Notes under the pieces: generated by a model
Databases searched by the model: none
Told to the model about the DNA's origin: nothing
The model's input: the letters and a program-made list of their open reading frames with translations, nothing else
Made by a program: the position numbers and the translations under genes
Source of the DNA: a virus
Taxonomy: Duplodnaviria; Caudoviricetes
Reading direction: 5' to 3' (one strand)
Length of the DNA stretch: 38,813 bases
Virus record (IMG/VR): IMGVR_UViG_3300046000_005732
Coordinates: 1-38,813 of that record
Part shown: piece after piece, positions 7,523 to 32,085 of the stretch
Layout of the letters: every line of letters begins with the position of its first letter
How positions within the stretch are numbered: the stretch's first letter is position 1

Positions 7523-10500
7523 TTATATTTCAGTATAAGTTATGCCTGTTAGGCGAACGGTTGCTAATGTGCCACCCAAAGTAGCTCTAGCTAATAATCT
7601 TACATTACTATTATTTATGTCGGTTGTTACTGTAACAATATCATCGGCAGATGAACTTAACAAAGCATATTGAGTAATATATGTGTTGGCGCCATCGTGC
7701 ATAACTAAAATTTCTCCAGATGCAAAATGAGGACCACCGCTTAAATATGCTGTGGTTTTTGCAGTATAAAGATATTTAGCAGATCTATAAACTGTACTAC
7801 CAAATAAATCTAATACATAATCTCCGGAGTTATCAACATTTTCTATTACCTTTGTACCGGCACTTGCGCTAATAAGTATCTTATCATCAGTAGATCTAGT
7901 AACATTAATTAAACTATCACCTACAATTTCAATAACATCTGTAGATACAACATTACCAGATTTGCTTCCAACTAATTTTAAATTTGCGCCATTTGTTGGA
8001 ATGGTGCCGGCCTGTATAGAAATATTATACGTTACATTGTCATATTCTTCAGGCTTAGGGATATTGTAATATAAAGTACCATCATTAGTAAACTGCCATC
8101 TATCAACGCTTTCATCCCATTTTAAATCTACGTCTGTACTAGTTCCACGATTAACAACAAAACTTGCATTAGATGAAGGTGATCCGGAAACTGAAGTTAA
8201 TACAGTTATTTTATCGCCCGATAATTGTATATTATCTGCAGAGATAGAATATAAACCGGTAATGTTACCCCCGGTTCCCGAACCAATAACTATATTTCCA
8301 GCAACATCTAAATTCTTATTAACTACAAACTTATCGCCGGTATTCGAATATGTAAATGTTGCATTAGCACCATTTATTGTAATACCGCCGCCATCTGCTT
8401 CTGCAGCATTTATTGCATTATTTGCAAGTACAATGTTTTTATCATTAATTGATACGGTTGTTGAATTTACCGTTGTTACGTTACCGCGAATAGTTAAATT
8501 ACCCGAAACAATTAAATCGCCAGTTGCGGTAATAGTTGTCGCAGTAATATCATTACTATTTAATGTACCATCCACGGTTACATTGTTAAATGTAACTGAT
8601 GCAGTAGGATGGACATTTTGCCCAATTGCGATAGTAGGATTGCCTGCTTGGGCATCTCCATCTGTTACATAAACACCTGTACCCGCTGCGATAGAAACCG
8701 CAACCAACGTATTTGTTGCTCCTCCAACTTTTGCAACAAGCCCATTAGAAAAATCTGAAAATATATTTTGTCTTGCATCTGATCTAGTATTTGCAGCAGT
8801 ACCGCCACGTTCGATTGCTACATCTTTAGTACCAAGATATGCATTACCAACAAAATTACCAAAATTATCAATTAAACGAATGCCGTTAATTGTAACAAGA
8901 TTTGAATTAAGTACAATATTGCCCGTACCTAATAAAGATAATCTTGCAGTAGAATCTACGGTGCCTTCTCTATCATTATAGAAATGGATGTCGCTTCTTA
9001 CATTAGGGCTATTATCTTTTGTTTCCGTAATTCGCATACCTGCGAATTTGTTTAGTGTACCATCTTTTAATACACCAAAGTAAATATTTGCAGTTTGTCC
9101 CGAAGTAAACTGTTGTACGTTTCCACCAAAGTACCCGTTAATCTCGGAGGCGGTACCTGGCGATAAACGATTTACAGTAACAAACTGCGTACTTACAAGA
9201 TTTGCTAAATCAATGCCGGCTGGATTGCCAAATTGATCTTGTATTTGTATGCCGCCACCGCCAGAGTCACTTATAGCTAAATTGCCCAAAAAGATTGTCT
9301 GTGCGCCAACATATATTCCGCGCCACAATTTGCTAGGTGATCCAATATTATAAACACCGCTAATTGCGGGTAAAATGTTACCTAAAACTGTTAGATTTTT
9401 ATTAAGACCAAATCCGTCATCTGTTTGGCCATATGTAAATCTAGCATTAGCGCCGTCAATGTAGATCCCAGAACCTTCCGCACTAGAAGGACTACCTGAA
9501 TTTAAAGCAAGTGTTAGTGTTCTACTTTCTGTTCTTACATTGGAAACATTTAGTAATACTGCATTACCTTGTACTGTTAAATCCCCACCTAATATTAAAT
9601 CATCTAATTCGATATCTTTACGATATATTGCAGATTGAATATCTGCTGCTAATCTGTTTGAGGTATAATAAAAATTATTTGAACCTTCAGTTAAATTATC
9701 AGTGGTAAAATTCGATAAGGATAATACTAAATTTGCTACATTCGATCTTTCGGCAAATTGTGCAGATTGTGCTGCACCTACCGTTGCACCCGAATACCAA
9801 TTTGTGCCAGACCAGGTAAGAACTTCACCTACATTTGCTATGCTTGTACTAACGTCGTACAATGCATCAATACTCATTTGCGATACGTTAGCAAATACTC
9901 TACTATCAGTGTAATATAAATTACTACCTTCTGCTAAATTCGTAGTAGTAAAATTCGATAAGGATAATACTAAATTTGCTACATTAGATTTTTCTGCAAA
10001 TACCGTAGAATTTGCGACATTTGATCTTTCCGCAAATACTGTAGATAAGGAAATATTTGCGACATTTGATCTTTCCGCAAATACTGTAGAATTTGATACT
10101 GCAGCAAGTGTTGCAAAATTTGCAATATTTGCTTGATTTGCAACTAAAGCTACATTCGATATACCTGCAAGATTTGCAAAATTTGCATTAGTTGCGGTAG
10201 AAATTACGCCTACGTTACCAACATTTGAAGCTCTAGGTTCCCAAACGGATCCCGTCCACGTTAATACGTATCCCAATGTAGGTGCAGTACTAACAGTATC
10301 TACATCAGCAAATACATTTAAACTTAAATTTGCTAAATTAGATACAACTCTGCTATTTCTATAATATAGATTATTACTACCTTCTAATAAAGCATCTGTA
10401 TTTAAATTAGATAAAGCATTTGAAAGATCAGAAACAGTAGGTACAATTCGTTCTACAAAGAAAGCTGATGCTGCAGAATTATATACTAATGCCCCACCGT

Positions 10501-28758: not shown

Positions 28759-28842
28759 TGGTACCCGGAGCCGGACTCGAACCGGCACACCTTTCGGCGA
28801 GAGATTTTAAGTCTCTTGTGTCTACCATTTCACCACCCGGGC
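28759..28842 (-). tRNA. trnL: tRNA-Leu(UAA)
   Basis: Cloverleaf with a long variable arm, loop CTTAAAA, encoded CCA. Confidence 0.95.
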
Positions 28843-28858
28843 ATTAATTAATAAACAT

Positions 28859-28887
28859 ATTATATAACATTCTATTAAAATTGTCAA
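28859..28887 (-). promoter_or_regulatory. sigma70-type promoter TTGACA-N17-TATAAT
   Basis: Perfect consensus upstream of tRNA-Leu. Confidence 0.9.
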
Positions 28888-28890
28888 GCA

Positions 28891-29166
28891 TTAGTTATCC
28901 AAAATATGATCAGCAGGTTTAGCCCGCCGTAAATACGTTTCTTCATATCGGGTCTTTGAAGTAATTGGATCATAATATGTTTTTACTTTTTCATTAATTT
29001 CGTTTAGTAAAAAATGTAACAATTTTACTTGTATTCTTTTTGACATGGATTCTAAAACAATTTCTGCATCTATCCCTGTAGATATTTGTTTGATCGCAAT
29101 GCCATATTCAAAAAGACGAACTCTCTCCGACCAATTTTCATATGATTCGTCTTTTTGTTTTCTCAT
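28891..29166 (-). CDS. Stand-alone glutamyl-tRNA reductase (HemA) dimerisation-domain-like protein
   Basis: SERVRLFEYGIAIKQISTGIDAEIVLESMSKRIQVKLLH matches the HemA C-terminal pattern .E..R..EL..A.K.L..G.D...VLE.LS..L.NKL.H. Confidence 0.6.
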   Translation of the reverse strand: MRKQKDESYENWSERVRLFEYGIAIKQISTGIDAEIVLESMSKRIQVKLLHFLLNEINEKVKTYYDPITSKTRYEETYLRRAKPADHILDN

Positions 29167-29170
29167 AAAC

Positions 29171-29244
29171 TGGAGCGGGGTAGGAGAATCGAACTCCTTT
29201 GACTAGCTTGGAAGGCTAGGACACAACCAATATGACAACCCCGC
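29171..29244 (-). tRNA. trnG: tRNA-Gly(UCC)
   Basis: GCGGGGT acceptor stem, CTAGC-CTTCCAA-GCTAG, U73-CCA; slightly irregular D stem. Confidence 0.9.
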
Positions 29245-29249
29245 AAATC

Positions 29250-29402
29250 TTACTTATTATACTCGCCAGTATCTTTTTTATACTGTTCTAGTTTATCCGC
29301 ATATGCTTCTTCAGATAAATTATGCCAACCAATACAATACCCCGACGGGCTACGACCACATCCACACTTAGGTCCATCTTCTTTTAGTAAAGTCTTTTCC
29401 AT
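29250..29402 (-). CDS. 50 aa CDGSH-like (3Cys-1His) metal/Fe-S binding peptide
   Basis: Not in the ORF track; MEKTLLKEDGPKCGCGRSPSGYCIGWHNLSEEAY...; AAGGAG SD upstream. Confidence 0.7.
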   Translation of the reverse strand: MEKTLLKEDGPKCGCGRSPSGYCIGWHNLSEEAYADKLEQYKKDTGEYNK

Positions 29403-30226: not shown

Positions 30227-30255
30227 ATTATAACACCTTTTTTGCTAGGCGTCAA
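30227..30255 (-). promoter_or_regulatory. sigma70-type promoter TTGACG-N17-TATAAT
   Basis: Consensus spacing upstream of the YkuK gene. Confidence 0.8.
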
Positions 30256-31165
30256 GCTCTTTTTTACGGTTATCTATAATATGATTGTACATAATATCCT
30301 CTACTTTGCGTATACGTTCATATTTATCTTTGGCTCCAAGTATTACGACAGAATACATTTGTCCGTGTCGTTCTACTGCCAAAGCCAAACAATACCCCGC
30401 ATGACTAGTAAATCCCGTTTTGCTAACAACAATTGTATTGAATTCAAAAAGAACAGGCCTATTTGTATTATTCAAAGTAATTGTTCTAATTTTTTTCTTA
30501 TAAATTGTTTCAATTTCAATCTGCTTCTTTGTACTAATCTCACGTATAATAGGATATGATGCAGCATTTGCAACCATTGTTCCTATATCTATAGCAGTTG
30601 CTTGATTTTTAGCACTTATACCTGAGGGGTCATCAAACGAACTACTTATCATACCAAACTCTAAAGCTTTTCTATTCATTTGTTCTATGAACATTTTTCT
30701 TCCGCCAGGATATGCATTAGCTAAAGTTTCTGCAGCAGAATTATCACTCTTAACTAACATAGCACTCAAAATCTCATATCTAGTAAAATTCTTTTTTCTC
30801 GGTAATGATCCGCCGACATTTGAATTAATTTGCATTACTTTAGTTAAATCTTTATCATTATCAAGCGATACCATTGCTGTCATTAATTTAGTAACACTTG
30901 CAAAAGGCCTAATTTTATTTCCATTCTTAATATACTCATGTGTCTTTGTAGTATCATTGAATACTAAAATACTCGTAGTATCTGTACGAATTATTCTTTT
31001 CTTTTTAATATGCTTGTGTGGTTTAGCGTATGCACTCGCACAACATAAAATTAAAGATGTGAATAAAACTATGGCGCCCCGCCACGGAATCGAACCGCGA
31101 CTAACAGTTTTGGAGACTGCTGTGCTGCCACTACACCAGCGAGACTTGGTTGTTGCAAATATCAT
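30245..31165 (-). CDS. Peptidase S11 D-alanyl-D-alanine endo/carboxypeptidase (PBP7/PbpG-like), secreted
   Basis: SxxK (ASVTKL), SxN (SDN) and KTG motifs; signal peptide IVLFTSLILCCASAYA; AGGAG SD before ATG 31165. Confidence 0.9.
   Translation of the reverse strand: MIFATTKSRWCSGSTAVSKTVSRGSIPWRGAIVLFTSLILCCASAYAKPHKHIKKKRIIRTDTTSILVFNDTTKTHEYIKNGNKIRPFASVTKLMTAMVSLDNDKDLTKVMQINSNVGGSLPRKKNFTRYEILSAMLVKSDNSAAETLANAYPGGRKMFIEQMNRKALEFGMISSSFDDPSGISAKNQATAIDIGTMVANAASYPIIREISTKKQIEIETIYKKKIRTITLNNTNRPVLFEFNTIVVSKTGFTSHAGYCLALAVERHGQMYSVVILGAKDKYERIRKVEDIMYNHIIDNRKKELDA
31072..31145 (-). tRNA. trnW: tRNA-Trp(CCA), nested within the peptidase CDS
   Basis: GTCTCGC/GCGGGGC acceptor stem, GCAGT-CTCCAAA-ACTGT, TTCGATT T loop, G73-CCA. 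Confidence 0.9.
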
Positions 31166-31200: not shown

Positions 31201-31770
31201 ATGAATCCATATATAGAATTAGAAATATCAATTGATGCGTCTGAAGATGAGATAAAAATCAAATTTAGATCTTTAGCGCAAATTCATCATCCCGACAAAG
31301 GTGGGGACGAGGAAGTATTCAAACGCATAAAATTAGCATACGAAATTCTGATTGATCCTATTCGCAGAAAAGAATATGATCTATTAGGTGAAGCGGATTC
31401 AAATCAAAATATTAAACAATCGGCATTAGATCATATCGCACAAATGTTACATGCAATTGTTCCAAATTTTAATCCCGAAAACGATGATCTAATTACTATT
31501 ATGGTTGGCCAAATTAATCAAATTAAAGTTGATATGGCTAACAATATTATAGTATGTGAGCAATATATATTACAACTAGAAAAAGTTATACGTAGAATAA
31601 ATTCGAAAAATAAAAATCGCAATATACTGTTAGATGTTGTTCAACTTCAAATAAAACAACGTAAACAGGAATTTGAAGATTTCAATACACGTATTAAAAT
31701 TTGTAATCTTGAATTGGAAATACTTAAAGACTATTTTTATGGGCTTGAAGAATTAGTAGCAATCAATTAA
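31201..31770 (+). CDS. DnaJ (J-domain) protein with a coiled-coil C-terminus
   Basis: NPY.EL.I...AS..EIK..FR.LA..HHPDKGGD...F..I..AY..L.DP..RKEYD. Confidence 0.9.
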   Translation: MNPYIELEISIDASEDEIKIKFRSLAQIHHPDKGGDEEVFKRIKLAYEILIDPIRRKEYDLLGEADSNQNIKQSALDHIAQMLHAIVPNFNPENDDLITIMVGQINQIKVDMANNIIVCEQYILQLEKVIRRINSKNKNRNILLDVVQLQIKQRKQEFEDFNTRIKICNLELEILKDYFYGLEELVAIN

Positions 31771-31992: not shown

Positions 31993-32085
31993 TGGTACTC
32001 CGGGAAGGACTCGAACCTTCTCTAACCGCCTATCTAGCGAATCGAGGTTATAAATCTCGTCGTGCTACCATTACACTACCGGAGT
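31993..32085 (-). tRNA. Non-canonical tRNA with a UAU (Ile) anticodon and a long variable arm
   Basis: ACTCCGG/CCGGAGT-ACCA acceptor; GTGT/GCAC D stem; CGAG(A)-TTTATAA-(C)CTCG anticodon arm; ~22 nt extra arm; GAAGG-TTCGAGT-CCTTC T arm. Confidence 0.75.

Follow-up and report, generated by a model that had tools for sequence, protein, structure and literature searches.

A stand-alone phage homologue of the glutamyl-tRNA reductase dimerisation domain which most likely acts on the host enzyme

The window analysed here is the whole of a 38,813-nucleotide stretch representing one viral contig (38.8 kb, ~22% complete), and includes tail-fibre genes as well as genes for a DnaB-like helicase and a UvsX-like recombinase. 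Between two tRNA genes on the minus strand lies an ORF for a 91-aa protein, P0001, homologous to the C-terminal dimerisation domain of glutamyl-tRNA reductase (GluTR/HemA), the bacterial enzyme which starts haem synthesis. The features of this locus are:

28759..28842, minus strand: tRNA-Leu(TAA), downstream of P0001 (a lineage-specific context)
28859..28887, minus strand: perfect TTGACA-17-TATAAT just past the P0001 stop codon, facing tRNA-Leu
28891..29166, minus strand: P0001, 91-aa stand-alone GluTR dimerisation-domain homologue (from the ORF and homology)
28894..28983, minus strand: P0001 residues 62–91, phage-specific third helix and A-D-H tail
28911-28929: terminator-like hairpin
28984..29148, minus strand: P0001 residues 7–61, two helices matching HemA (from the model and profile alignment)
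29171..29244, minus strand: tRNA-Gly(TCC), ending 4 nt before the P0001 ATG (a lineage-specific context)
30227..30255, minus strand: sigma-70-like promoter, 11/12 with an extended -10 (a consensus match alone)

An 86-aa RNA polymerase omega-like protein is encoded 250 bp from P0001 (28381-28641, minus strand; Pfam RNA_pol_Rpb6, E 0.003), and its homologue in the related contig L020 passes TIGR00690 rpoZ (39.2 vs 23.6 bits); by its sequence, this is likely to be a second mimic of a host subunit. A 50-aa protein with no Pfam match (29250-29402, minus strand) contains CGCGRS..GYC.GWH, which we take to resemble the CDGSH iron-sulfur motif, and similar ORFs adjoin the P0001 homologue in one relative (L025 384-560) and follow just after the haem oxygenase gene hemO in another (L023 10765-11019). 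The ORF for an S11 D-Ala-D-Ala carboxypeptidase (30245-31165, minus strand) overlaps a tRNA-Trp gene (31072-31145), so that its true start is probably located downstream, and a DnaJ-domain gene is found at 31201-31770 on the opposite strand to the carboxypeptidase. A 93-nt tRNA called as Ile, with the unusual anticodon TAT (31993-32085, minus strand), is also present in L012 and L020.

The source virus is an uncultured T4-like phage. The sequence of a close relative, G002, in which the homologous protein shares 92% identity with P0001, starts with a scaffold-like gene followed by the major capsid gene, and the nearest cultured matches to this capsid protein are from Pelagibacter and Methylophilales myoviruses (62–65%). 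Just downstream of the P0001 homologue, two close relatives (L012 10432-10875 and L020 7326-7775) have a short rubrerythrin gene, flanked by tRNA-Leu and tRNA-Met, which is absent from the window. In the 5 of 64 parts scanned, the rubrerythrin of a close relative was nearest to that of a gammaproteobacterial MAG (83%), followed by Burkholderiaceae (79%), Polynucleobacter (77%) and Pelagibacter (75%), and the relatives' rubrerythrin is thus a hint that the phage host belongs to the Gamma- or Betaproteobacteria. According to the main text of PMC11480375, these bacteria make ALA by the C5 route.

The exact P0001 protein is present on 59 contigs. The sigma-70-like promoter ~1 kb upstream is the strongest upstream candidate for producing a transcript that extends into the gene, with no terminator-like site located between it and the gene, and in three relatives (L015–L017) a consensus promoter is found directly before the ATG of the P0001 homologue; as the TTGACA..TATAAT sequence there is located 5–6 nt ahead of the ATG (L015 ~9960-10003, and likewise L016 and L017), leaderless transcripts are suggested. 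Three metatranscriptomes contained 5–10% of the region's words, with contigs over neighbouring genes and not over the bin 28924-29050 inside the P0001 gene, which speaks neither for nor against expression. Purifying selection acts in the relatives of P0001, where three pairs have dN/dS values of 0.11, 0.12 and 0.18, and the value for the window's own pair (0.59) is based on just 10 changes, which are too few to read.

A phmmer search of 1.84 billion 50%-identity representatives identified 126 relatives of P0001 at E ≤ 0.001, with lengths of 55–151 aa and a single protein longer than 110 aa. Our working alignment (A1) consists of 96 of the 100 stored proteins of 84–105 aa (three near-copies and the protein P0105 were left out), and the phage members are ~35% identical to each other. 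Natural forms of 62–63 aa also occur (L025 200-391, G352 and G356) which end after helix 2 without the Y/D-H tail, and these three relatives indicate that the tail is not always needed. No longer forms of the family were found among 7995 candidates (this is weak evidence), and a GTDB pattern scan produced no stand-alone relative in 43 pattern matches. In cultured phages, P0001 had no match, and P0007, a relative with 53% identity, matched full-length hemA only, on two Acinetobacter-labelled contigs (E 0.07). Neither protein has a PHROGs family, and the ESM Atlas gave no usable match. It should be noted that the label 'glutamyl-tRNA reductase' given to some family members in databases is an over-annotation.

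The resemblance to the C-terminal dimerisation helices of HemA, which the initial annotation had proposed from the sequence alone, was upheld by profile comparisons, although it is confined to residues ~7–61. Its suggested check against the GlutR_dimer profile succeeded for the family and not for the single protein: P0001 alone scores 17.3 bits against PF00745 (E 0.006), below the cut-off of 22.9, while P0007 lies above it (30 bits) and 84 of the 96 A1 members match at E ≤ 1e-3 (64/96 at E ≤ 1e-4, which is about the cut-off). TIGR01035 hemA is matched by 25/96 at E ≤ 0.01. HHalign comparison of the family with 25 HemA sequences gave a probability of 98.6% (E 8e-16) with an alignment that is gap-free across the first two helices, and a PDB search with the family profile placed GluTR dimerisation domains as the top two of four matches (1GPJ, E 0.027; 4YVQ, E 0.38); P0001 alone found no PDB sequence. 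In the reverse direction, the family profile matched 250/300 Gammaproteobacteria genomes, nearly always once each (this tally takes in two unpublished genomes, G058 and G160), and 0/5 alphaproteobacterial genomes, and the best 20 loci of the reverse search were all full-length HemA proteins matched at the C-terminus.

Within residues 7–61, P0001 keeps E20, A24, G31, V37, L38, K48 and H51, and over the 96 phage and 25 host sequences the conservation of these positions is similarly high for E20 (100% in phage and 96% in host), A24 (94 and 100%), G31 (92 and 96%), K48 (100 and 100%) and H51 (86 and 100%), at a mean phage–host identity over the domain of 27%. The last ~30 residues are phage-specific, and residues found only in the 96 phage sequences are W12 (97%), Y74 (95%), D86 (90%) and H87 (81%); in the window's lineage, the proline after H51 has been lost and F52 is found instead. 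The P0001 model (pLDDT 89.6) has helices at 9–29, 34–60 and 67–79, the first two of which are matched by the first two helices in the model of the host HemA domain (355–382, 387–411 and 415–429). Foldseek returned nothing at E ≤ 0.001 with the P0001 monomer model, and VIA-align gave a best Z of 7.3 for unrelated helical hairpins with GluTR absent among the 50 matches listed, a result that is uninformative for so simple a fold. A tree of 55 columns with 32 phage and 25 host rows split phage from host by one branch with weak support (76/95); the phage family may therefore represent one old capture, for which the tree names no donor.

The absence of a catalytic or NADPH-binding domain, also stated in the initial annotation, was borne out. 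Neither the catalytic domain with the TCNR cysteine nor the NADPH-binding domain of HemA is present in the 91 residues of P0001, and a search of the ORFs at 74 phage loci (17 viral and 57 of 58 metagenomic; L168, a 19-residue match, was left out) turned up no N-terminal part (HemA 1–330). A split or broken hemA was rejected as the origin of the ORF, since no N-terminal half is encoded nearby and, in the window, a tRNA gene precedes the ORF by 4 nt. One short match, in G222, which had been considered as a free domain is really the tail of a frameshifted hemA (L197 1907-3201), possibly due to an assembly error, and one Polynucleobacter genome, G016, has two hemA copies (L172 and L174). Judged from its sequence, P0001 is a catalytically empty copy of the GluTR dimerisation domain that has been kept by selection; P0001 is not itself a GluTR, and the domain is already known.

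The link to a tRNA cluster made in the initial annotation did not hold. Clustering of the 74 loci at 70% identity gave 31 lineages. Of the 22 in which the gene is flanked by 1 kb or more in both directions, two have a tRNA within 1 kb of it (3/31 if short ones are counted). None of the 74 loci has a tRNA-Glu, nor is this among the nine tRNAs of the window. Three larger relatives encode a tRNA-Glu as part of arrays of 16–31 tRNAs, more than 14 kb away from the gene.

A different neighbourhood is more typical. In the sample collected by the gene, haem oxygenase is encoded within 4 kb downstream in 11/20 lineages with enough flank and bilin reductase in 9/20, and the usual order is gene–[DnaK]–Hsp20–ClpS–hemO–FDBR (in L023 the gene abuts hemO). 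In the sample collected by haem oxygenase, the gene was found 0.3–5.7 kb upstream in 35 of 68 viral loci and on the same strand in 34. Four loci (L218, L219, L221 and L222) have two tandem bilin reductase genes after hemO and a 408-aa ORF between ClpS and hemO. There is no block gene in the available DNA of 13/31 lineages, and neither haem oxygenase nor bilin reductase was seen in the window or in the two long relatives nearest to it, which between them cover roughly half of one genome. Five relatives from the capsid group were compared: hemO occurs in one fragment, and a relative that is 90% complete is devoid of the gene, hemO and alaS (the viral ALA synthase gene), so that the gene and hemO are both accessory.

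The gene and alaS were not found together. Of the 50 longest of the 68 hemO contigs, nearly all of which are fragments, 30 carry the gene (five of these being search seeds), six carry alaS above the cut-off, 14 neither and none both; the gene was also absent from 24 alaS-seeded viral contigs, one of them complete, which leaves it missing from all 30 alaS contigs examined. Two syntenic loci illustrate this most clearly, with the gene located between the 'MSSTVR' ORF and DnaK–Hsp20 in L205, while in L207 the same ORF runs straight into Hsp20 with the gene missing and alaS ~1 kb upstream. The exclusion is weak after dereplication: Fisher's p is 0.0024 for the raw counts, 0.043 when contigs are merged at 95% haem oxygenase identity (leaving three alaS lineages) and 0.25 at 85%, a level at which contigs with the gene and contigs with alaS fall together in one cluster, that of L205 and L207. 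The pattern fits the host GluTR as the target and leaves the direction of the effect unfixed, as a phage with alaS could dispense with a stabiliser and with an inhibitor alike, and host type alone can explain it because alphaproteobacteria are without GluTR.

Action on the host HemA is, from these comparisons, the most likely role of P0001, and it probably pairs with a host GluTR subunit. As for direction, sustaining and inhibiting GluTR come close to a tie, with a narrow lean towards a sustained ALA flux. The reading we prefer, to which we give a probability of about 0.38, is that P0001 keeps GluTR folded and active during infection, by stabilisation or deregulation, so that the supply of ALA and haem continues. 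P0001 would be expressed early from a host sigma-70 promoter and would then substitute for one of the twin subunits of host GluTR, giving a heterodimer in which W12, Y74 and the D-H tail could provide extra contacts that outcompete the homodimer, and the GluTR subunit capped in this way might be spared Clp/Lon turnover or haem feedback. In a host using the C5 pathway, the result would be what viral ALA synthase achieves in sister phages.

Our lean towards sustaining GluTR has three grounds. Thirty contigs combine the gene with an enzyme that consumes haem and encode no source of ALA themselves; in sister phages the same block is accompanied by an enzyme producing ALA; and the neighbouring ClpS and chaperones act on the type of turnover reported for bacterial GluTR, which passages of PMC6597238 attribute to Clp and Lon. 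Viral AlaS is described in the main text of PMC11480375 as a working enzyme encoded in cassettes with haem oxygenase and PcyA/X. Against this, dominant-negative proteins are classically built as a dimerisation domain on its own, and we see no direct route from heterodimer to activation. The alaS exclusion is weak once relatives are merged and explicable by host type, haem oxygenase is lacking in the roughly half a genome that the window covers together with the two long relatives nearest to it, and the 90%-complete capsid-group relative does without all three genes. The dN/dS of the window pair, based on its 10 changes, and the replacement of the proline after H51 by F52 also count against it.

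Inhibition is the next possibility and one we hold only a little more tentatively. P0001 would split the V-shaped GluTR dimer, block GSAM docking and lower ALA synthesis. This would either save Glu-tRNA(Glu) or hold down the level of toxic haem and porphyrins, with haem already present being removed by the haem oxygenase of the phage. The retention of the dimerisation surface in a protein without catalytic parts is what such an inhibitor would look like, one bacterial GluTR is reportedly titled as a dissociable homodimer, and the alaS exclusion fits equally if viral AlaS makes the inhibitor redundant. GluTR competes with EF-Tu for Glu-tRNA in vitro, as stated in passages of PMC4284751, and FLU inhibits plant GluTR via the dimerisation domain according to passages of PMC4726326. 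However, PMC4284751 also indicates in its abstract that the Glu-tRNA supply is normally adequate for both pathways, and the counts given above tie the gene neither to tRNA genes nor to tRNA-Glu. Blocking GluTR would starve the phage's own bilin route, given the 30 contigs which carry the gene and haem oxygenase without alaS, and the ideal pair of an inhibitor with an alaS bypass was seen in 0/30 alaS contigs. The suggestion in the initial annotation that the protein throttles haem synthesis would also sit uneasily with the usual position of the gene just upstream of phage haem oxygenase and bilin reductase.

We regard it as unlikely that P0001 leaves GluTR untouched and homodimerises into a GluTR-like stem acting as a decoy for something that normally binds there, for instance GSAM, a regulator of the FLU type, or haem bound via H51 or H87. 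The two histidines are well conserved (86% and 81%), one bacterial GluTR is reportedly titled as holding one haem per subunit, and the haem ligand of the Chlorobium GluTR is said to be a C-terminal His, the KLLH histidine; we know of no FLU-like regulator in Proteobacteria, and this together with the natural 62–63-aa forms without the D-H tail argues against a decoy. The plant dimerisation domain is the FLU docking site in passages of PMC4726326, which is in its favour.

Slightly less probable again is that an old capture of the 3' end of hemA was exapted to give a small dimer-forming protein with some unrelated target (a tRNA, protease adaptor or chaperone client), with the haem-gene neighbourhood a matter of historical synteny. 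As the single branch between phage and host allows for a single old capture, the neighbourhood counts would not be independent, and both the lack of block genes in 13/31 lineages and the strongest phage-only residues, W12, Y74 and D86, which are without host counterparts, suit this alternative; it does not readily account for host-invariant residues kept at 86–100% among members as divergent as these, or for the absence of the gene from every alaS contig. That an amphipathic helical hairpin merely happens to resemble HemA, for which P0001's sub-threshold Pfam score and lack of a PDB match would speak, is highly improbable and largely refuted by the reciprocal profile, which picks out one gap-free HemA stretch in 250/300 gammaproteobacterial genomes and none in the five alphaproteobacterial ones.

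A broader version of the preferred reading, in which P0001 sustains the host GluTR, is bolder and on balance rather unlikely. In it, a widespread viral microprotein family would re-partner the host's rate-limiting tetrapyrrole enzyme and free GluTR from haem feedback and proteolysis, acting together with the haem oxygenase, ClpS and chaperones of the phage, and would be the C5 counterpart of the viral ALA synthase. If true, the gene would be a non-enzyme auxiliary metabolic gene and the dimer interface of bacterial GluTR a regulatory switch. The step targeted would be the branch point where charged tRNA-Glu goes either to translation or to haem synthesis. The known phage tetrapyrrole genes encode enzymes where this family would provide a non-catalytic handle, which enzyme-centred annotation overlooks or mislabels as the whole enzyme. 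A stabiliser could be put to use in the bioproduction of ALA and haem, and would reveal how control of proteobacterial GluTR works via the dimer interface. An inhibitor could be taken as a naturally occurring lead peptide against the C5 step, which is absent in animals. In the titles, abstracts and main texts covered, few of them from subscription journals, we found no paper on a phage-borne free GluTR dimerisation domain; the main text of the pmoC-phage preprint does not contain 'glutamyl' or 'hemA', and the string 'dimeri' does not occur in the main text of PMC11480375.

Of the systems already known, the GluTR C-terminal domain (HemA/GtrR; PF00745; 1GPJ, 4YVQ) is the closest, sharing with P0001 residues 7–61 the helix-turn-helix and the invariant E, A, G, K and H, and having three helices in both models. 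P0001 differs in being stand-alone, phage-encoded and 91 aa long, without the catalytic and NADPH domains and the spinal helix, and with the phage-only W12, a re-sequenced third helix carrying Y74, and the D-H tail, at ~27% identity. MicroProteins such as Id and LITTLE ZIPPER similarly consist of a single interaction domain without an effector domain and act by heterodimerisation, but these are eukaryotic regulators of transcription factors, whereas P0001 would be a viral microProtein aimed at a metabolic enzyme. FLU and GBP are also non-catalytic and set the activity or stability of GluTR by binding it, FLU via the dimerisation domain (passages of PMC4726326 and PMC6597238), while P0001, which has no FLU/GBP family match in Pfam, is a copy of the GluTR domain itself with predicted binding. 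The valaS-hemO-pcyA/X cassettes described in the main text of PMC11480375 are like the P0001 family in belonging to aquatic phages, in addressing the first tetrapyrrole step and in lying beside haem oxygenase and bilin reductase, and in the sample examined valaS and the P0001 family never share a contig. In contrast to vAlaS, which in that text is an enzyme bypassing the C5 route, P0001 is non-catalytic and would act through the enzyme of the host.
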